The notes under the pieces: model-generated
The model's database searches: none
What the model was told of the DNA's origin: nothing
What the model saw: only the letters and a program-made list of their open reading frames with translations
Source: an uncultured Acidobacteriota bacterium
GTDB lineage: Bacteria; Acidobacteriota; Polarisedimenticolia; J045
DNA length: 64,000 nt
NCBI GenBank assembly: GCA_963702425.1
Contig: CAVPCQ010000037.1
Location: forward strand, 160,001 to 224,000
Reading direction: 5' to 3'
Program-made: the position numbers and the translations under genes
Part shown: piece after piece, positions 2,958 through 54,725 of the stretch
Layout: every line of letters begins with the position of its first letter
Numbering within the stretch: position 1 is the stretch's first letter

Positions 2958-4583
2958 TCAATACGGCCGGTCCCAGGGATCGCTCGGTGGAGCCTCCTTC
3001 ATCGCGCGATCCCACGCCAGGGGCCCCGGGTGGGCGGCGATCGCACGCGCCGCGGCGAGCGCGAGGCCGGCGACCCGGGCCGCCTTGCCGGCATCGAGCG
3101 CGTCCGCGGTGTCGCCCGGGGTGTTGTAGTCCTTGTGCGGCCCGGTGAAGAGCATCACGGCGGGCACGTCCTTCTCGGCGAACGAGGTGTCGTCGCTCCG
3201 TCCCGGCGGGCGGAGATAGGGGAGCTTGCGGACCTCGAGCCCGACCGTCGTCGCGGCCGCGGCGAGGATCGCCGGCAGGTCGGTCGCGCGCGCGGTGTAG
3301 GAGGCGAGCACGACGCCGGCGTAGTCGCCGCGATCGCCGTTGTTGCGGCCGATCATGTCCATGTCGATCACCGCGACCGGGCGCGACCCGCCCGGCCACG
3401 GCACGGCGACGAAGGCGTGCGAGCCGAGCGCGCCCTTCTCCTCGGCGCCGAAGACGGCGAAGACCACGCTGCGGGGCAGTCCGTGGCCCGCCGCAGCGCC
3501 CGCGCGGAGCGCCTCCGCGAGCGCCAGCACGCCCGCTGTGCCGCTCGCGTTGTCGTCCGCGCCCGGGTAGACGACGAGCGACCCGTCGGCTCCCGTGTCG
3601 GCGCCGATATGATCGTAGTGGGCCGCAACGACGACGGTCTCGCCGGCGAGCTGCGGATCGCTTCCGGGGAGCACGGCGACGACGTTCTGCTGCTCGAGCG
3701 TCTCGGCGCGGTAGCCCGGCAGCACGAGCCGCACCGTCGCACCGTCCAGGGCGCGGCGGGGACTTCGCCCGACGCCGGCCGCCGCGAGCAGCTCGGCGGG
3801 AGCGGCGTGGCCCGCGGCGAACAGGCGCGCGGCGACCTGCTCGCCGACGTACACGACCGGCGGCAGGGGCGCGGTGCCGGGCAGCACGAAGCGCGGCCGC
3901 GCCTTCTCGCGCAGATCGCGGCGCCAGGATTCCTCGATCGGCCGCCCCCCCGGCGGCGCGGCGACCAGCAGCAGCGCCGCCCCCGCCTCGGCCGCGGCCG
4001 CGGCCTTCGTGGCGACGAACGAGAAGCGCGACATCCGGCCCGGCGCGAAGGCCGAGCGATCCCCGTCCAGCTTGGGCTCGCCGGCCCAGACCAGGACCGC
4101 GCGCCCCTTGACGTCGAGCCCGGCGAAGTCGTCGTGTTCCGGCTCCCGCGCACGGATCCCCCAGCCGGCGAAGACGACGGAAAGGGGCGCCGTAGCGGCT
4201 TCGGTCGGCGGCGCCAGCAGCTCGACGAACACCCCCCGCCCCTGGGGAACGGCGGCCGTGTCGCCGACTGCGAGCCCCGCGCCGGCCTGGTCGAAAGAGA
4301 GCCGCTGGACGTCGAAGGGCTGCAGGTAGGCGCCGTCCGGCCCGGCCCCGGCGAGCCCCATCCTGGCGAAGCGCTGGGCGACCGCGAGCGCGGCGAGCGC
4401 AGCCTCCGGCGTGCCGGCCTCCCGGCCGCGCAGCGCGGGGTGGGCCAGGAGCTGGACGTCGGCGGCGATCGAGGCGGCGGAGATCGTCTGCGCCGCGGCG
4501 GCCGGGACGGTGAGCGCGAGCAGCGTCGCGAGCGCGGCCCGGCCGGCCGCGCGAGCGGGAACGGAGGCGCGTGAGCGGGTCAT
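2958..4583 (-). CDS. Secreted M28 family aminopeptidase with PA domain
   Basis: Signal peptide, AHYDHIG, PGADDNASG, FGAEEKG, DMDMIGR, SDD and H-x-D-Y-x-TPGD motifs. PA insert VFAGWGI...DFAGLDVKGR. Confidence 0.92.
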   Translation of the reverse strand: MTRSRASVPARAAGRAALATLLALTVPAAAAQTISAASIAADVQLLAHPALRGREAGTPEAALAALAVAQRFARMGLAGAGPDGAYLQPFDVQRLSFDQAGAGLAVGDTAAVPQGRGVFVELLAPPTEAATAPLSVVFAGWGIRAREPEHDDFAGLDVKGRAVLVWAGEPKLDGDRSAFAPGRMSRFSFVATKAAAAAEAGAALLLVAAPPGGRPIEESWRRDLREKARPRFVLPGTAPLPPVVYVGEQVAARLFAAGHAAPAELLAAAGVGRSPRRALDGATVRLVLPGYRAETLEQQNVVAVLPGSDPQLAGETVVVAAHYDHIGADTGADGSLVVYPGADDNASGTAGVLALAEALRAGAAAGHGLPRSVVFAVFGAEEKGALGSHAFVAVPWPGGSRPVAVIDMDMIGRNNGDRGDYAGVVLASYTARATDLPAILAAAATTVGLEVRKLPYLRPPGRSDDTSFAEKDVPAVMLFTGPHKDYNTPGDTADALDAGKAARVAGLALAAARAIAAHPGPLAWDRAMKEAPPSDPWDRPY

Positions 4584-4621
4584 GCCCGCATCGTAACCCG
4601 GGCAGTTAAACTCCGCGCATG
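4584..4621. promoter_or_regulatory. Back-to-back leaderless-type promoters (-10 box, 6 nt, ATG) for the M28 gene and the intron-interrupted M16 gene
   Basis: Minus strand TACGAT-gcgggc-ATG(4583). Plus strand TAAACT(4607-4612)-ccgcgc-ATG(4619-4621). No SD before either ATG. Confidence 0.6.
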
Positions 4622-6665
4622 GTGCGTCGTGAAGAAGCCGGTGGCCAGGGCCAGCAGACGGCGATGGGGGTCCGGTTTCATGCTGCACCGATCCAGCGGG
4701 TGGAAGTCCCGCCCCGGTAAGCGCCGGAGCGCCGGGTAGCAGGCCCCAGGCGAGGGCGGGAGACCGCCTTGCCCGAGCGGGGCATCGAAAGCCTGCGAGG
4801 CGGCGGAAGCCGTGCCGCAGGGAGCGAGCACGCGGGCCGCAACCTGAAGTGAAGCCTGCAGCCTCGACAGAGGAACAATCCGGGGGCCGAGCCGCTCATG
4901 TCACGGCGAAGGCAACACCGCCCGCGTCAGAACCGGAGCGCGCGGGCGGTCCCGGCGGGGTAGGGGGCGCAGCACGCGTGCAAGGAGCGGTGCGGAACAC
5001 GAGAGACCCGTCTGCGCGGCCCACGTCGGGGCCAGGCGCGCCGTATCAGCCGGAGGCGAAATCGGCCGTTGCGCAGCGGGAGTCCGAGGGGATCGTAGTA
5101 CCGGTGATCGTCGCGACGAAGAACGCGACGGGAGGGAAGGGTCCCTGCGGTGGTCATGTCGTCGAAGCAGGTAAGCGCGAGGGAATGGCCGCCGCGAGCG
5201 GACCTAACGACCCCGGCGCCGGCGAGGCGCGCGAGAAAGTGCGACGACTGCAACGACGGCTGTGGAGTGCGGCCAAACGGTCGGCTGGGAGGCGTTTTCA
5301 CGCGTTGTACGACCACCTCCACAGGGGTGACGTCCTGCGGGAAGCGTGGCGGCGAGTGCGGGCGAACCGCGGCGCGGCGGGCGTGGATGCCGAAACGATC
5401 GCCGAGGTCGAGCGGTATGGGGTCGAGCGGATGCTGAACGAACTCGGCCAGGCCCTGCGTGCGAAGGAGTACCGGGCCGGGGTGGTGCTGCGCCGGTCCA
5501 TCCCGAAGGCTGACGGAAGGCAGCGGCCGCTGGGCATCCCGACGGTCCGGGACCGGGTGGTGCAGAGGGCGGCGAAGCTGGTGCTGGAGCCGATCTTCGA
5601 GGCCGATTTCCTGCCGGTTTCGTATGGCTTCCGCCCCAAGCGGAGCGCGCAGGGTGCGCTGGAGACGCTGAGGAAGCTCGGCGCGAAGGGGCACCATCAC
5701 GTGCTCGACGCGGACATCCGCAACTACTTTGGGAGCATCGACCACGACAAGTTGCTGAAACTCGTCGGGCGACGCGTCTCGGATCGGCGGGTGCTCAAGC
5801 TGCTGCGGCAGTGGCTCGAGGCTGGGGTGCTGGAGGATGGCACGGTGACCCCGACGATCGCGGGGACGCCGCAGGGCGGGGTGATTTCACCGCTGCTGTC
5901 GAACATCTACCTGCACGTCCTTGATGTCCTGTGGACGCGACACAGCGCTCCCTTGGGGACGCTGGTGCGTTACTGTGACGACTTCGTGGTGCTGTGCCGC
6001 ACGAAGGTGGCGTGCGAGCGGGCCGAGGAGCGGATACGGGTGATCCTTGGGCGGCTCGGCCTTGAGTTACACCCGGAGAAGACGAGGCGGGTCGAACTCT
6101 GGAACGGTAAGGAGGGCTTCGATTTCCTCGGCTGCCATCTGCACAAACGTCTGAGCGGCAAGGTCTGGGAGCAGACGGGACAGCGCCTGTACTTCCTGCA
6201 CCGGTGGCCGTCTCCACGGGCGATGAAGCGGATCCGGCAGCGCGTGAAGGAGCTGACCCCGCGGGGACGATGCCACGCCGATCTGCGCGAGGTGATCGCC
6301 GTCCTCAACCCCGTCCTGCGCGGGTGGGGTGCTTACTTCCGCACCGGGAATGCCGCCAAGCGCTTCAATCAGGTCGATCGCTACGTCTGGCAACGGCTCC
6401 GGCGCTTGCGGCTTCAGCGCCAAGGCCGATCCCTCCAGCCTGGCGAGGCGGCCCGATGGACGCGCGAGTTCTTCTGGAACCTGGGATTGCACCGGCTGCG
6501 GGGCACGATCCAGTCCCCCGAACAGCCCTTCTGGCAGGCCGTGTAATGCCGCGCCTCGAGAGACCACCGGTAAGCCGTGTGCGGGAAATCCGCACGCACG
6601 GTTCGAAAGGGGGTCTTGCACGTCCGACGGGGCAACCCGGTCGGGCGCGATAGGATCTACCAATG
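4622..6665 (+). mobile_element. Group II intron (ribozyme plus RT/maturase ORF)
   Basis: 5' GTGCG at 4622. Domain V AGCCGTGTGCGGGAAATCCGCACGCACGGTTC at ~6573-6604 with AGC triad. Domain VI with bulged A at 6659, ending ...CTACCAAT(G). Exact boundary uncertain by 1 nt. Confidence 0.93.
5185..6546 (+). CDS. ltrA: Group II intron reverse transcriptase/maturase, no endonuclease domain
   Basis: RT0 (AWRRVRANRGAAGVD), RPLGIPTVRDRVVQ, SYGFRP, DADIRNYFGSIDH, GTPQGGVISPLLSNIYL, YCDD, FDFLG, X domain (LNPVLRGWGAYF). Start placed at ATG 5185 after GAGGG. Confidence 0.95.
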   Translation: MAAASGPNDPGAGEAREKVRRLQRRLWSAAKRSAGRRFHALYDHLHRGDVLREAWRRVRANRGAAGVDAETIAEVERYGVERMLNELGQALRAKEYRAGVVLRRSIPKADGRQRPLGIPTVRDRVVQRAAKLVLEPIFEADFLPVSYGFRPKRSAQGALETLRKLGAKGHHHVLDADIRNYFGSIDHDKLLKLVGRRVSDRRVLKLLRQWLEAGVLEDGTVTPTIAGTPQGGVISPLLSNIYLHVLDVLWTRHSAPLGTLVRYCDDFVVLCRTKVACERAEERIRVILGRLGLELHPEKTRRVELWNGKEGFDFLGCHLHKRLSGKVWEQTGQRLYFLHRWPSPRAMKRIRQRVKELTPRGRCHADLREVIAVLNPVLRGWGAYFRTGNAAKRFNQVDRYVWQRLRRLRLQRQGRSLQPGEAARWTREFFWNLGLHRLRGTIQSPEQPFWQAV

Positions 6666-9557
6666 CACACGACTTGCCGGAACGTACCCTTGGTCGTCCT
6701 CGTCCTCGTCCTCGCAGCGGCCGGCCTGCCGGCTGCCGCCAGTTCGGCCGCCATCACCTCACCCGCGTCCGCGTCCCCGACCGGCGCCGAACTCGCGGTC
6801 GTCACCGCCGTCCGCGAGCTCGTCTTCGCGAACGGCGCCCGGGCGTTGCTCGTGCCGCGAGCCGGGAGCGGGTCGGTGCTCGTGGCGGTCTCCGTCGGCG
6901 CCGGGGCCCAGGACGAGCCGGCCGACCGGATCGGCATGTCGCACTTCCTCGAGCACCTGCTGTTCGACGGCTTCGACGGGATGGACGAGCGCGGCGTGAC
7001 CGAGGCGTTCGAAGCGCTCTCCTCGTACGTCAACGCGTTCACGCGCGACCAGGCGACGGTCTACTTCGCGCTCACGCCGCGCGAGGAGGCCGCGCGCGCC
7101 GCCGCGCTGCTGGCCGGGATGCTCACGCGCTCCACGATCCCGGAGGCCGCCTTCGAGAAGGAGCGGAAGGTGATCCTCGAGGAACTCGCGCGCGAGGCGG
7201 CGCAGCCCTCCATGGTGCGCGAGCAGGCGGCGCGCGCCGCGCTGTGGCAGGACAGCCCTTGGGCCCGCTCGGCGGGGGGCACGCCCGAGACCGTCGGCGC
7301 GGCGACGCGCGACGAGGTCGTTTCGTTCTGGAAGCGCCACTACGTCCCCGGGGCGATGCGCATCCTCGCGATCGGCGACGCGGACCCGGCGACACTCGCC
7401 GCGATCCTGGCGCCGCTCGAAGCGCTGCCGCCCCCCGCGGCGCCCGGCGCGCGCCCGGCGCCGCCGCGCCCCGGGCCCGCGCGCCCGTCGCCCCGCAACT
7501 TCCCGCACTGGGCGACCTGGGTCGCTACGCCCGCGGGGGAGGAACCGCCGCAGCTGACGGTCGCCCTGGTGCCGCCCGCGGGGGTCGCGGGCGGACCCGC
7601 ACTCGACGTGCTGGCCGAGTGGCTGGGCGACGACGGCGGCCCGGTGTCGAAGGCACTCGTCGGTCACGGCGCGACCGAGGTCTCCGCCGGCCGGCTGCCC
7701 CGCCGGCCCGACGACGTGATCGAGATCACCGTCACCGCCGCGGAGGGCCAGGATCCGCAGGAGCTGCTCGCCCGCGCACTCGGCGTGCTCGAGGCCGCGC
7801 GCAGCGGACCGCTCGACGCCGAGGCGACGCGCCTGGCGCGGGCGTGGCTCTCCGAGCGCGCGCTCTCGCGCCAGCGCCTGCACTACACCGCGGTCCTGGA
7901 CGGTGAAGCGCTCGCCGCCGCCGATTCGCTGCAGGCGGCGATCGATCCGCGGGCGCCCACTGCAGCCGAGCTGCGCGCACTGGCTGCCGCGATCCTGACC
8001 GGCCTCGCGCCGCGCGCGCGCGCGGTCTGGTCGGGGCCGGGTGGGCCCGCGTCGCGCGTCGCGCTCCCGGCGCCGGTCGCGGCCGCGCCCGGGTCGGCGT
8101 CGAAGATCGCTGCCGGACCGCGCGGCAGCCGCGTGGCGACCCTTCCGAACGGACTCGTCCTCGGGGTGCTCGAGGAGCCGGGCAGCCCGGTCTTCGGGAT
8201 CCACCTGCTCGTGGCCGACCGCAATGCGCGCGAGCCGGCGGGCCAGGACGGCGCCGCCGACCTCGCGCACCGCCTGCTCGGGGAGGGTAGCCAGCTGAGT
8301 CCCGGAGAGAGCTTCGAGCGTCGCCTGCAGCGCGCCGGGATCGATCTCACCCCGGCCGACAACCCGATGATCCCGATGGACGATCGTTACCACGTGCCGG
8401 CCTGGTCCTACGTGCGGGAGGAGGGGCCGGCGGACGAGTTGGACGCGGCGCTCGAGTTGCTGGCCGAGATGCTGCGCCAGCCGCAGTGGAACACCGCGGC
8501 GTGGGAGGCCGCGCTGTCCGCTCACCGCCAGTCGCGGCGCGCGGGCGGGCAGGGGAGCGCGCGCCTCGACGCGGCCCTCCGGGCGCGGCTGCTCGGCCCC
8601 GATCACCCGTTGGCGCGGCCGGCGTCCGGGAGGCCCGACGCCCCCCCCCCGACCGAGGACCAGGTCCGTGCGTTCTGGGGGACCGGAACGGACGGCTACT
8701 TCGCGCCGGCCGCGCTGGTGCTGACGGTGGCGTCGCCCTGGGACGCGGCGACGGTCGTCGAGCGGGTCCTGGAGCTGCTCGGGACCGGTCCGGGCGCTGC
8801 CCCCGCCCGCGTTGCCTACCCCGACCCGAGCCCACGTGATACGCCTCCCGCAGCCGCGGCCGTGTCGGCCCCCCCGGCGCCACCCTCTGCGGCGTCCGGC
8901 GCCCCGGCGGCCCCCCCTGGAATGGCGGACCCTTCGTCGAAAGGGATGCCTTCCGGGATGCCTCCCGGGATGCCTCCGGGAATGCCCCCCACGATGCCCC
9001 CCACGATGCCGCCCGGGATGCCTGCCGGCGCCGGCGGCACGGGCCCCGGGGGGCCGCCCCCGCAGCTCGGCCTGGCCTGGGGGCGCGTGGTCGGAGTGCC
9101 CCCGGCGGATCGCGCCGCGCTGCTCGTCGCGGTCTCCGCGCTCGAGGACCGGATGACGGCGGAGTTGCGCGAGAAGCAGGGGCTGCTCTACCGCCATGAC
9201 GCGGGGGTTCGCGCGTTGCCGCGCGGCGAGTGGCTGATCTCGGCGTCGTTCTCGACGCGCCCCGAGAACGAGGCCCAGGCGATCGCCGCGTTCGAGTCGC
9301 TGCTCACCGGTCTCGCTGCGCAGCCGCTGCCTGCCGCCGATCTCGAGCGCATGCTGGCCCGCGCGCGGCGGCGCGCGATGCTCGACGGGCAGTCGGCCGT
9401 CTCGCGGGCCTACACCCTGGGGCGCCAGATCTACGAGGGGGACGCGTCGCCGCTCGGGATCACGCTGGCCGCGCTGGAGCAGGTGACGCCGCAGGCGGTC
9501 CAGGCGGCCGCCGCGGCGTGGCTCGAGCCCTCGCGGATGGCGCGGGTCCAGCAGTGA
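6663..9557 (+). CDS. Secreted M16 (pitrilysin/insulinase-like) zinc protease, fused halves
   Basis: Signal peptide, inverted zincin HFLEH, NAFT, EKERKVILEE. The second half lacks HxxEH. C-terminal LREKQGLLY. Confidence 0.9.
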   Translation: MHTTCRNVPLVVLVLVLAAAGLPAAASSAAITSPASASPTGAELAVVTAVRELVFANGARALLVPRAGSGSVLVAVSVGAGAQDEPADRIGMSHFLEHLLFDGFDGMDERGVTEAFEALSSYVNAFTRDQATVYFALTPREEAARAAALLAGMLTRSTIPEAAFEKERKVILEELAREAAQPSMVREQAARAALWQDSPWARSAGGTPETVGAATRDEVVSFWKRHYVPGAMRILAIGDADPATLAAILAPLEALPPPAAPGARPAPPRPGPARPSPRNFPHWATWVATPAGEEPPQLTVALVPPAGVAGGPALDVLAEWLGDDGGPVSKALVGHGATEVSAGRLPRRPDDVIEITVTAAEGQDPQELLARALGVLEAARSGPLDAEATRLARAWLSERALSRQRLHYTAVLDGEALAAADSLQAAIDPRAPTAAELRALAAAILTGLAPRARAVWSGPGGPASRVALPAPVAAAPGSASKIAAGPRGSRVATLPNGLVLGVLEEPGSPVFGIHLLVADRNAREPAGQDGAADLAHRLLGEGSQLSPGESFERRLQRAGIDLTPADNPMIPMDDRYHVPAWSYVREEGPADELDAALELLAEMLRQPQWNTAAWEAALSAHRQSRRAGGQGSARLDAALRARLLGPDHPLARPASGRPDAPPPTEDQVRAFWGTGTDGYFAPAALVLTVASPWDAATVVERVLELLGTGPGAAPARVAYPDPSPRDTPPAAAAVSAPPAPPSAASGAPAAPPGMADPSSKGMPSGMPPGMPPGMPPTMPPTMPPGMPAGAGGTGPGGPPPQLGLAWGRVVGVPPADRAALLVAVSALEDRMTAELREKQGLLYRHDAGVRALPRGEWLISASFSTRPENEAQAIAAFESLLTGLAAQPLPAADLERMLARARRRAMLDGQSAVSRAYTLGRQIYEGDASPLGITLAALEQVTPQAVQAAAAAWLEPSRMARVQQ
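8943..9026 (+). repeat. In-frame 12-nt tandem repeat encoding (G/T)MPP-type units
   Basis: About 7 copies of GGGATGCCTCCC/ACGATGCCCCCC giving GMPSGMPPGMPPGMPPTMPPTMPPGMPA. Confidence 0.85.
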
Positions 9558-34757: not shown

Positions 34758-34847
34758 TGGCGGAAGGGGTGGGATTCGAACCCACGGTACGGTTACCCGC
34801 ACACCGGTTTTCGAGACCGGCGCCTTCAACCGCTCGGCCACCCTTCC
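34758..34847 (-). tRNA. tRNA-Ser(CGA)
   Basis: GGAAGGGTGGCCGAGCGGTTGAAGGCGCCGGTCTCGAAAACCGG, long variable arm, ...GGTTCGAATCCCACCCCTTCCGCCA. Confidence 0.97.
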
Positions 34848-41547: not shown

Positions 41548-41636
41548 TGGTGCCGGAAGGGGGAGTCGAACCCCCAAGGGGCGTGAGCCCCGGCGGATTT
41601 TGAATCCGCTGCGTCTGCCGATTCCGCCATTCCGGC
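41548..41636 (-). tRNA. tRNA-Leu(CAA)
   Basis: GCCGGAATGGCGGAATCGGCAGACGCAGCGGATTCAAAATCCGC, variable arm, ...GGTTCGACTCCCCCTTCCGGCACCA. Confidence 0.97.
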
Positions 41637-53681: not shown

Positions 53682-53747
53682 GGCCCGGGGGATAGCCCAC
53701 GCGCGGGCCGGGGTCAAGCGGGGGAGGGGCGCGGTAGACTCTCGCCC

Positions 53748-54725
53748 ATGCCCGCCAACCTGTCTCCCGACTACAGGAACGCGGAAGCGCGCCTGCGCGC
53801 GGCGAAGACGCCCGACGAGCGGCGCGCCGCGCTGGAGGAGATGCTCGCCACCATCCCCAAGCACAAGGGGACGGAGAAGATGCAGGCCGACCTCAAGCGC
53901 CGGCTGGCGCGCCTGAGGCAGGAGGTCGAGTCCAAGACCGCGCGCGCCGGGCACTCCTTCCGGATCGAGCCCGAGGGGGCGGCCCAGCTGGTCCTGCTCG
54001 GCCCCCCCAACAGCGGCAAGTCGTCGCTGCTCGCCGCGCTCACGCGGGCCGAGCCGCAGGTCGGCGAGTGGCCCTTCACGACGACGCGTCCGCAGCCGGG
54101 GATGATGCCGTTCGAGGACGTCCAGCTGCAGCTGATCGACCTGCCGCCGGTCACCGACGAGCACATGGACCCCTGGCTGCCCGACCTCGTGCGCGGGGCC
54201 GATGCGGCGCTGCTGGTCGCCGCCGCGTCGTCGCTGGCCGCGCCGGAGGACGTCGAGGAGGTCCGCCAGCGGCTGGCCAAGGTGCGAACCCCGCTGGTCG
54301 GCGCGCTGCACCACGCGAGCGACATCCGGGAGTCGCCGATCCCGACGATGCTGGTGGTCACCAAGATCGACGCCGCGTCGGCCGACGACGTCCTCGCGCT
54401 GGAGGACTTCTACCGCGAAACCTACCCGGTGGCGCGCGTCGCGGCGACGGCGGGTCAGGGGCTGGAGGAGCTGAAGGCCGCGCTCTGGCACTGGCTGCAG
54501 CTGGTGCGCGTCTACACCAAGGTGCCCGGCAAGCCGTTCGACCGGACCGCACCCTACGTCGTCCACCGCGGGGCGACGCTGCTCGAGCTGGCCGAGAAGA
54601 TCCACCGCGACCTGGCCGAGAAGCTGGACTTCGCGCGGGTCTGGGGCGGGTCGCGGCAGGGGCTGCGCGTGGCGCGCGACTACGAGCTGCACGACGGCGA
54701 CGTGGTCGAGGTTCACGCCGGATGA
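53748..54725 (+). CDS. DRG/Rbg-like Obg-family GTPase with TGS domain
   Basis: MPANL...PKHKGTEK N-terminal helix, GPPNSGKS, WPFTT, DLPP, TKID, RVYTK-x-PGK, C-terminal L-x-DGDVVEVH. Confidence 0.88.
   Translation: MPANLSPDYRNAEARLRAAKTPDERRAALEEMLATIPKHKGTEKMQADLKRRLARLRQEVESKTARAGHSFRIEPEGAAQLVLLGPPNSGKSSLLAALTRAEPQVGEWPFTTTRPQPGMMPFEDVQLQLIDLPPVTDEHMDPWLPDLVRGADAALLVAAASSLAAPEDVEEVRQRLAKVRTPLVGALHHASDIRESPIPTMLVVTKIDAASADDVLALEDFYRETYPVARVAATAGQGLEELKAALWHWLQLVRVYTKVPGKPFDRTAPYVVHRGATLLELAEKIHRDLAEKLDFARVWGGSRQGLRVARDYELHDGDVVEVHAG

Follow-up and report, generated by a model that had tools for sequence, protein, structure and literature searches.

How does a mobile intron come to lie exactly between the first and second codons of a bacterial gene, and what does it recognize there? 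The question is raised by a 64,000-nucleotide (nt) stretch of DNA from an uncultured Acidobacteriota bacterium (assembly GCA_963702425.1, contig CAVPCQ010000037.1, positions 160,001–224,000; the whole stretch is called the window below), in which an M16 peptidase gene on the plus strand is interrupted directly behind its start codon. The site reads TAAACT (4607–4612), a CCGCGC spacer, ATG (4619–4621) and then GTGCG from 4622; the inserted DNA terminates as ...TAGGATCTACCAATG (the same end is also written ...GATAGGATCTACCAATG) at 6665, and CAC ACG ACT comes next, the open reading frame (ORF) after the insert being 964 amino acids long with Peptidase_M16 and M16_C domains (Pfam). A preliminary description of this locus had pointed to the ATG, to TAAACT at 6 nt without a Shine–Dalgarno (SD) sequence, to GTGCG and to CAC ACG ACT, and these statements all hold on rereading. 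Positions 4622–6665 are confirmed as a full-length group II intron that bears a reverse transcriptase (RT)/maturase gene and separates codons 1 and 2. From sequence comparison, we consider it likely that this element is intact and mobile, and that it belongs to a specialised lineage whose homing target is the boundary behind the first codon of leaderless genes.

The identity of the element follows from its RNA and protein signatures. Rfam matches cover 4694–4961, with the models D1D4-4 (RF02003, 62.1 bits) and D1D4-6 (RF02005, 54.2 bits) both above their cut-off of 49; the Rfam domain V/domain VI model RF00029 stays below threshold in the window, though it is reached in seven outgroup introns. 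The intron ORF, separated from the intron 5' end by 563 nt, contains RVT_1 (E 1.9e-34) and GIIM (E 1.5e-17) domains, and since Pfam reports no other domain on it, an endonuclease domain was not detected. In domain VI, G–C pairs flank a bulged A6659, which is likely to be the branch point, seventh base from the 3' end; the six bases that follow it (CCAAUG) give a near-normal geometry, yet the last two are UG and not AY.

The boundaries of the insertion are set by intron-free alleles and close copies. In three genomes of the same genus (G004, G001 and G003), the M16 site is empty and reads TTA(G/A)ACTCCGCG(C/T)ATG followed in frame by CGx ACx, with one ATG, so that the predicted intron-less allele, an ATG joined in frame to codon 2, does exist. 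Because the three empty alleles have one ATG, the inserted DNA amounts to 2,044 nt and its placement is ambiguous within the repeated ATG alone. A second copy of the intron lies on contig C17 of the host genome (97% identical) and a third in G003 (95%); similarity to these two copies starts at, or one base inside, the ATG and stops two bases beyond the terminal ATG. A second site, with a GTG start, removes most of this ambiguity: the alleles of the host genome and of G004 are empty with a single GTG, and the occupied G003 allele consists of GTG and an intron ending in ATG. As the G003 flank ends in GTG, the intron in ATG and the empty alleles have GTG once, the terminal ATG belongs to the intron.

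To see whether this arrangement is general, we looked at relatives found by scanning one genome per species with the RT protein of the intron. At least 594 were obtained, the best 80 of which were examined; with three close copies, this makes 83 stretches. The 5' ends were located by a pattern, a profile built from the first hits and alignment to the nearest relatives, and the 3' ends from the conserved terminus of domain VI. A 5' junction was located in 64 of the 83 stretches, 61 of which were counted as testable for having at least 14 nt of upstream DNA. The motif TANNNT precedes the start codon and the intron in 60 of these 61 junctions, with a spacer of 6 nt (n=40), 7 nt (n=17) or 8 nt (n=3), as against 92 of 15,209 control xTG sites taken from the flanking DNA of these loci (0.6%); in the host genome, TANNNT occurs 6–8 nt upstream of 0.50% of ATG and 0.25% of GTG triplets. 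An enrichment of the −10/N6/ATG arrangement at the insertion sites of RT homologues, which had been set in advance as a test, is thus borne out. Immediately before the intron stands ATG in 53 of the 64 junctions, GTG in nine, TTG in one and ATT in one, and the intron itself begins with GUGCG (47), UUGCG (12), UCGCG (4) or GUGUG (1). At the other end, all 54 located 3' ends show a UG terminus instead of the AY consensus, 51 being ATG and three GTG. Note that the absence of the near-universal G1/U2 (e.g. in L063 and L071) accompanies the UG 3' end. One further copy, on an Embleya replicon from a plasmid collection, has the same junctions and fits the rule.

The hosts of the lineage are labelled as 10 phyla, and the introns are 1.84–2.10 kb long. 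Carriers in culture include Embleya sp. NBC_00896, Sorangium sp. So ce176, Nannocystis pusilla Na p29 and Pelomonas dachongensis DC23W. In a quick maximum-likelihood tree of 82 RT proteins, the AUG-ended introns form two well-supported clades of 56 and 11 rows. They are adjoined by a Paenibacillaceae clade of six rows, both of the two members examined sitting behind terminator-like hairpins; in a further outgroup of nine rows, three of three members examined end in CUAC. The 3' end motif of L078 (Saccharopolyspora hattusasensis) is found some 2 kb downstream of its expected position, suggesting an insertion inside the intron copy.

The sites occupied by the lineage are, with some exceptions, genuine starts of unrelated genes. 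Among the downstream ORFs of at least 60 amino acids that run in frame from the terminal ATG, 35 of 43 match Pfam at E ≤ 1e-5, every family being different; many of these matches start at profile positions 1–7 within residues 4–15, and the N-terminal ones include TrmE, class Ib tRNA synthetase, SmpB, DegV, HAD and tetrapyrrole methylase. The host genome (5.1 Mb, 71.2% G+C) has the same architecture at its own genes: TANNNT upstream of all host ATGs peaks at spacers of 6 (134 cases) and 7 (120) compared with about 60 at the others, and the ATGs that carry the motif head an ORF of at least 150 amino acids in 57% of cases (33% in controls) and have a stop codon within 20 codons upstream in 40% (12% in controls). 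Neither a −35 consensus nor an extended −10 was found upstream of the lineage hexamers. We infer that the hexamer functions as a −10 box and that the mRNAs lack leaders, in which case the 5' exon would be 3 nt long. The divergent M28 peptidase gene next to the M16 gene (2958–4583, minus strand), whose start codon is 35 nt from that of its neighbour, displays TACGAT-N6-ATG (4581–4595) and looks leaderless too.

What reads such sites emerges from covariation, which we measured as mutual information between the positions of the exons and those of a 54-intron alignment, with 10,000 shuffles as a control; a consensus fold of the 54 sequences gave the context of the exon-binding sites (EBS) that pair with the intron-binding sites (IBS) of the exons. 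The base after the terminal ATG pairs with 4963 (EBS3) in 50 of 53 introns, with all four Watson–Crick types and a mutual information of 1.38 bits; none of the 10,000 shuffles pairs as well, and the 3' splice site is therefore fixed after the AUG. Together with the empty and occupied GTG-start alleles, this result supports, of the two sets of ends considered in the preliminary description, a terminal UG with the branch A seventh from the end rather than a 5' GGUGCG with a terminal AU. Placing both splice sites one base to the left (AU/G...AAU/G) would yield canonical G...AU ends, suit the UUGCG and UCGCG subclades and be compatible with the DNA; it is rated unlikely because EBS3 would then fall on the second exon base. 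The same evidence bears on whether the element could be an ordinary intron with the canonical ends GUGCG...CUAC at 6660, lying in a short 5' untranslated region two bases before a native ATG at 6663. The CUAC at 6657–6660 resembles a canonical 3' end and outgroup introns do end in CUAC; nevertheless, the empty alleles, which have one ATG and no CAATG, refute this possibility, EBS3 varies in concert with the base that follows the terminal ATG, and the A of CUAC is the conserved bulged A of the presumed branch, so that we regard it as having virtually no chance of being right.

On the 5' side, exon positions −1 to −4 pair with 4897–4900 (EBS1) in 54/54, 54/54, 53/54 and 49/54 introns, counts that were matched by 158 of 10,000 shuffles for the −3 pair and by 0–2 of 10,000 for the −4 pair. 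The stem of the EBS1 hairpin shows compensatory changes in the alignment, and EBS1 reads CAC, a compensatory substitution, in two introns at GTG starts (L064 and L069). EBS2 was found after alignment on the hexamer (50 introns): pairing with 4873–4870 is seen for hexamer positions 3, 4 and 5 and for the spacer's first base in 33/50, 47/50, 50/50 and 41/50 introns, these counts being reached by two, none, not applicable (the pair is invariant) and none of 10,000 shuffles, respectively. Between IBS2 and IBS1, 4–6 bases remain unpaired; in textbook introns the two are adjacent. No covariation was detected at exon positions −5 to −9 and +2 to +5, hexamer positions 0–2 or spacer positions 7–8, and folding of 4856–4916 alone gave a z-score that is not significant. 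As four base pairs (bp) of EBS2–IBS2 lie on the −10 hexamer, recognition of the DNA target is mostly a matter of RNA pairing. EBS1 and EBS3, which the preliminary description had proposed to look for in domain I, are thereby placed at 4897–4900 and 4963. Its remark that the 5' exon is too short for the usual 6-nt IBS1–EBS1 pairing has to be amended on two points: the EBS1–IBS1 pairing is 4 bp long, with a fourth pair 5' of the presumed start, and EBS2 adds 4 bp on the hexamer. These positions also speak to insertion at the RNA level, that is, reverse splicing into a leaderless mRNA behind its 5'-terminal AUG, followed by synthesis of complementary DNA and recombination. Such a route would account for a link with the 5' ends of transcripts and would not require the DNA to be read, but the covarying −4 and IBS2 positions lie 5' of the presumed start and would hence be absent from the RNA, which makes it scarcely credible.

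For the subfamily of the window copy, the target rule can be written TANNCTC, N4–6, C(A/G)TG, C. It fits 18 sites in the host genome, and 1,771 if TA is left out; of the 18, two carry insertions in sister genomes, namely the start of a PAP2-family gene (G003, intron) and that of a GTPase gene (G004, remnant). These figures help to evaluate the idea that targeting relies on short RNA pairings alone (about 9 bp), the TA and the restriction to leaderless genes arising later through loss of copies that kill genes or are not expressed. The pairings do account for the T, the start codon ATG and five variable bases, the sampling is biased towards copies that are intact and were active recently, and most host genes must remain functional. 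Yet, with 1,771 fitting sites of which 18 have TA, TA is present at all four sites used in the genus and at 60 of 61 overall; the neutral intergenic dead-end copies expected under this hypothesis were not seen; and the C17 copy sits at a hexamer and ATG with a 20-amino-acid ORF, so that a real gene is not required. The disproportion between 1,771 and 18 sites leaves some, but little, probability for a choice that is made by pairing only and then filtered by the disappearance of harmful insertions.

Alternatively, the intron might find its sites through RNA polymerase, by invading the non-template strand of open or initially transcribing complexes or by contacting sigma, which would explain both the TA, left unexplained by pairing, and the 6–8 nt spacing. 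The 40:17:3 distribution of spacers resembles the host genome's own hexamer-to-ATG spacing. However, the last T of the hexamer, which is held by sigma in open complexes, pairs with A4871 in 50 of 50 introns, and the intron would compete with sigma for the same base. Introns without an endonuclease are known to prefer single-stranded DNA (PMC12584367), as such a mechanism would have it. On balance, we find site selection by way of the polymerase very improbable, and we retain homing to the first-codon boundary by RNA pairing to the −10-like hexamer and start codon.

Several observations weigh against this reading as well. The first three hexamer positions, which include the invariant TA, the most promoter-like part of the motif, pair with nothing that we found. 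Selection of the best 80 among at least 594 relatives was based on RT similarity, a criterion that favours intact copies, and part of the junction finding used a pattern that requires xTG; the profile and the alignment, which have no such requirement, gave the same junctions. No 5' junction was located in 19 of the 83 stretches, i.e. 15 outgroup introns, which lack these ends, two contigs with short upstream DNA (L046 and L060) and two unlocated cases (L073 and L078). The hexamer of L057 is GACAAT, the sole exception among the 61, and L091 has ATT followed by UCGCG. Variation of the first two intron bases (GU 48, UU 12, UC 4) is unusual among group II introns. At three sites, the in-frame ORF spans just 11–25 amino acids (L047 with 11, the C17 copy with 20 and L103 with 25); since these ORFs are short, like the 39-amino-acid in-frame ORF of L094, which resembles a lipoprotein signal peptide, a real gene is not always present. 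Neither an SD-like nor a −10-like motif precedes the terminal codon in 27 of 54 introns, mostly from the actinobacterial clade. Finally, the C17 copy (L002) and the third copy (L007) each carry one extra base near 6172–6180 within the RT ORF, which is either a frameshift or a homopolymer assembly error; among the three close copies, only that of the window has an uninterrupted RT ORF.

What is then the role of the AUG at the end of the intron? An SD-like word precedes the terminal codon in 22 of 54 introns, a full TANNNT-N6 in 11 and the A/T core alone in 16. In the window copy, the AGGA is part of a complete TAGGAT-N6-ATG. The AGGA that had been noted ahead of a new in-frame ATG is therefore present in this copy, but it is not conserved in the lineage (22/54) and the same bases form the TAGGAT-N6-ATG. 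Because SD-like and −10-like motifs are absent from about half of the lineage, the conserved feature is the AUG itself, which may serve as a reserve start codon, imitate the 5' exon or do both. As regards a mimic of IBS1, one of the two introns with an EBS1 reading CAC ends in GUG and the other in AUG. In G004, the start of a GTPase gene (L030) is preceded by a 5'-truncated remnant of about 130 nt (domains V and VI) that ends in TAGAAT-N6-ATG, the upstream DNA being rearranged, while the native start in the host genome and G001 is TAGACT-N7-ATG. This difference shows that the end of an intron is able to take the place of a native promoter and start codon.

Altogether, homing and splicing may be pictured as follows. 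As the covariation shows, EBS2 is matched to the last three bases of the hexamer and one spacer base; across a flexible gap of 4–6 nt, EBS1 (CAU plus one base, reminiscent of the initiator anticodon) is matched to the start codon and the preceding base, and EBS3 to the first base of codon 2. If the hexamer acts as a −10 box, transcription would begin at the A of the ATG and the 5' exon in the RNA would be AUG only, in which case EBS2 and the fourth EBS1 pair would serve DNA homing only. The invariant TA could be read by the intron protein or could reflect the need for a real promoter. Splicing would restore the leaderless mRNA, and the terminal AUG would keep a start codon on the unspliced RNA, to which the TAGGAT-N6 and AGGA of the window copy may also add a promoter or a ribosome site. 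These elements can be combined into a bolder picture, which we put forward tentatively and consider rather doubtful as a whole, namely that of a retroelement built on leaderless signals. Its RNA would read the −10 box and the start codon, something sigma-like (the intron protein or the polymerase itself) would read the TA, and the ribozyme would splice from a triphosphorylated 3-nt exon. The terminal AUG would be functional, both as an internal duplicate of the 5' exon, by which the ribozyme could release its 3' end independently of the tiny exon, and as a replacement start codon, in some clades a replacement promoter, for the host gene; the G004 GTPase remnant may be an example of the latter.

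Features of the window discussed in the text, with their positions and the basis of each assignment
Feature	Position	Strand	Basis or remark
−10-like hexamer TAAACT of the M16 peptidase gene	4607–4612	+	6 nt 5' of the ATG; TAGACT/TAAACT in the three empty alleles
IBS2 (ACTC: last three hexamer bases and first spacer base)	4610–4613	+	Covariation; 3/4 paired with EBS2 in the window copy
IBS1 (C and start codon ATG 4619–4621)	4618–4621	+	Pairing with 4897–4900
Group II intron, 2,044 nt, GUGCG...CUACCAAUG	4622–6665	+	Empty alleles, close copies, Rfam
Variable insertion resembling a hairpin, close to the 5' end of domain I	4633–4684 (approximate limits)	+	Alignment of 54 introns
EBS2 (GAGG), domain I	4870–4873	+	13-nt single-stranded stretch (consensus fold)
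EBS1 (CAUG)	4897–4900	+	9-nt loop of hairpin 4891–4907
EBS3 (G)	4963	+	3-nt internal loop; partner is the first base of codon 2 (6666)
Intron-encoded reverse transcriptase/maturase, 453 amino acids	5185–6546	+	Pfam RVT_1, GIIM; homologues alignable from the first residue
Domain V (AGC triad, GAAA loop)	6572–6605	+	Alignment of 51 introns
Domain VI, bulged A 6659	6609–6661	+	GG...CU-A-CC geometry conserved
Intron 3' end TAGGAT-CTACCA-ATG; terminal in-frame ATG 6663–6665; AGGA 6653–6656	6651–6665	+	Sequence
3' exon: M16 peptidase gene from codon 2 on	6666–9557	+	ORF and Pfam
GTPase-like gene start, 325 amino acids, TAGACT-N7-ATG	53735–53750 (start 53748)		Sequence; fits the target rule; empty in the host genome and G001

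The insertion at 4633–4684 is found in the subclade of the window copy and absent from the actinobacterial subclade. The two close copies, L002 (host genome, C17:143587–145634) and L007 (G003, C19:183510–185556), are both without the GT that corresponds to window positions 4670–4671. Exon positions +1/+2 are CA at the occupied M16 and PAP2 sites as well as at the third close copy, and CG in all five empty alleles; a general requirement for CA is ruled out by the G004 remnant site and its empty counterparts, which have CC, and the lineage has no preference. Three other stretches of the host genome (C32:231800–231918, C34:46914–47039 and C17:153212–153337) are 75–78% identical to the RT region, indicating other group II introns or RT genes there, and G004 harbours a decayed fragment of a related intron (L009, contig C3, about 224226–224405) in which an internal deletion joins pieces of domain I to domain V. 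From public metagenomes and metatranscriptomes, only contig pieces of related introns were recovered (two DNA and two RNA-library runs), which show no start, end or junction, with at most 28% of the sampled words per run. The window also holds tRNA genes at 2335–2406, 34761–34847 and 41551–41636 (minus strand), as identified with Rfam.

How does this lineage compare with known group II introns, whose boundary consensus is 5' GUGYG and 3' AY (PMC4028801)? The nearest described case is the IIB1 lineage of Avi.groEL and EcKTE56.groEL (Michel et al. 2007, cited in PMC12584367), which inserts in or beside initiation or termination codons and recreates the codon (UAA to UAG at groEL), the way in which it finds these codons being stated as unknown (PMC12584367). 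The parallel drawn in the preliminary description is thus sound as far as a codon-targeting lineage is concerned, and the insertion at the start codon is shared, as is the place of an extra element, which in the subclade of the window copy occupies the same 5'-subterminal position of domain I. The two differ, by description, in defining features: the IIB1 introns have a subdomain Ia of 300–700 nt, a length of 3,228 nt in the E. coli member and a CL1-type RT, and occur in proteobacteria with the studied members tied to groEL (PMC12584367), whereas here the large subdomain Ia is lacking, the insertion being about 50 nt or absent, the introns are 1.84–2.10 kb long with an endonuclease-less RT, and they occur in 10 phyla at many unrelated genes with a −10 box and start codon.

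Other affinities point to endonuclease-less introns. Group IIC introns have an RT without endonuclease, very short exon pairings and a transcription signal in place of a long unique sequence (PMC1702495, PMC4028801), and IIC-attC introns are reported to carry outward promoters at their 3' end (cited in PMC4424553). The present lineage shares with group IIC the endonuclease-less RT, the short pairings and the logic of a transcription signal, and its Paenibacillaceae sister clade sits behind terminator-like hairpins; it differs in using a promoter −10 and start codon instead of a terminator or attC stem-loop, in having an EBS2 and in its AUG 3' end. A sequence search of the PDB with the RT gave 184.8 and 173 bits for IIC RTs and 181.8 for a IIB RT, leaving the class unassigned. 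Class F, g1–g4 and unclassified introns encode an RT and X protein with a short C-terminal extension and have a IIB-like RNA, some of their boundaries being unpredictable by standard profiles, and in IIE/IIF introns the EBS2–IBS2 pairing is dispensable for splicing (Toro and Martinez-Abarca 2013, PMC3552965; Nagy et al. 2013, PMC3753933), which fits an EBS2 used only for DNA homing here. Compared by description only, the RT probably belongs among these endonuclease-less class F, g1–g4 or unclassified introns of Toro and Martinez-Abarca, for which the available descriptions, unlike the lineage reported here, state no insertion-site rule. RmInt1 (class D) also has no endonuclease, and its homing is aided by the replication clamp (PMC12584367). 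It offers the likeness of an endonuclease-less intron helped by a cellular machine. RmInt1 relies on long EBS1/2/3 pairings to one IS element site, unlike the short pairings used here at many gene starts. In the searchable full-text literature we found no description of introns at leaderless starts, although Michel et al. 2007 and the supplements of the papers cited may bear on priority; the lineage thus appears to be widespread and undescribed.

Known ways by which group II introns spare their hosts are insertion into other mobile DNA, behind terminators (IIC) or at start and stop codons (one IIB1 lineage). Short RNA pairings to a −10 box and start codon would constitute a further strategy, with a mechanism that can be read, and the ribozyme would have to function with about three bases of 5' exon and with non-canonical ends. 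Owing to the Avi.groEL parallel, the question of how introns find start and stop codons becomes directly testable. The intron would also mark leaderless genes in many uncultured phyla, and it may guide the design of targetrons aimed at gene starts.

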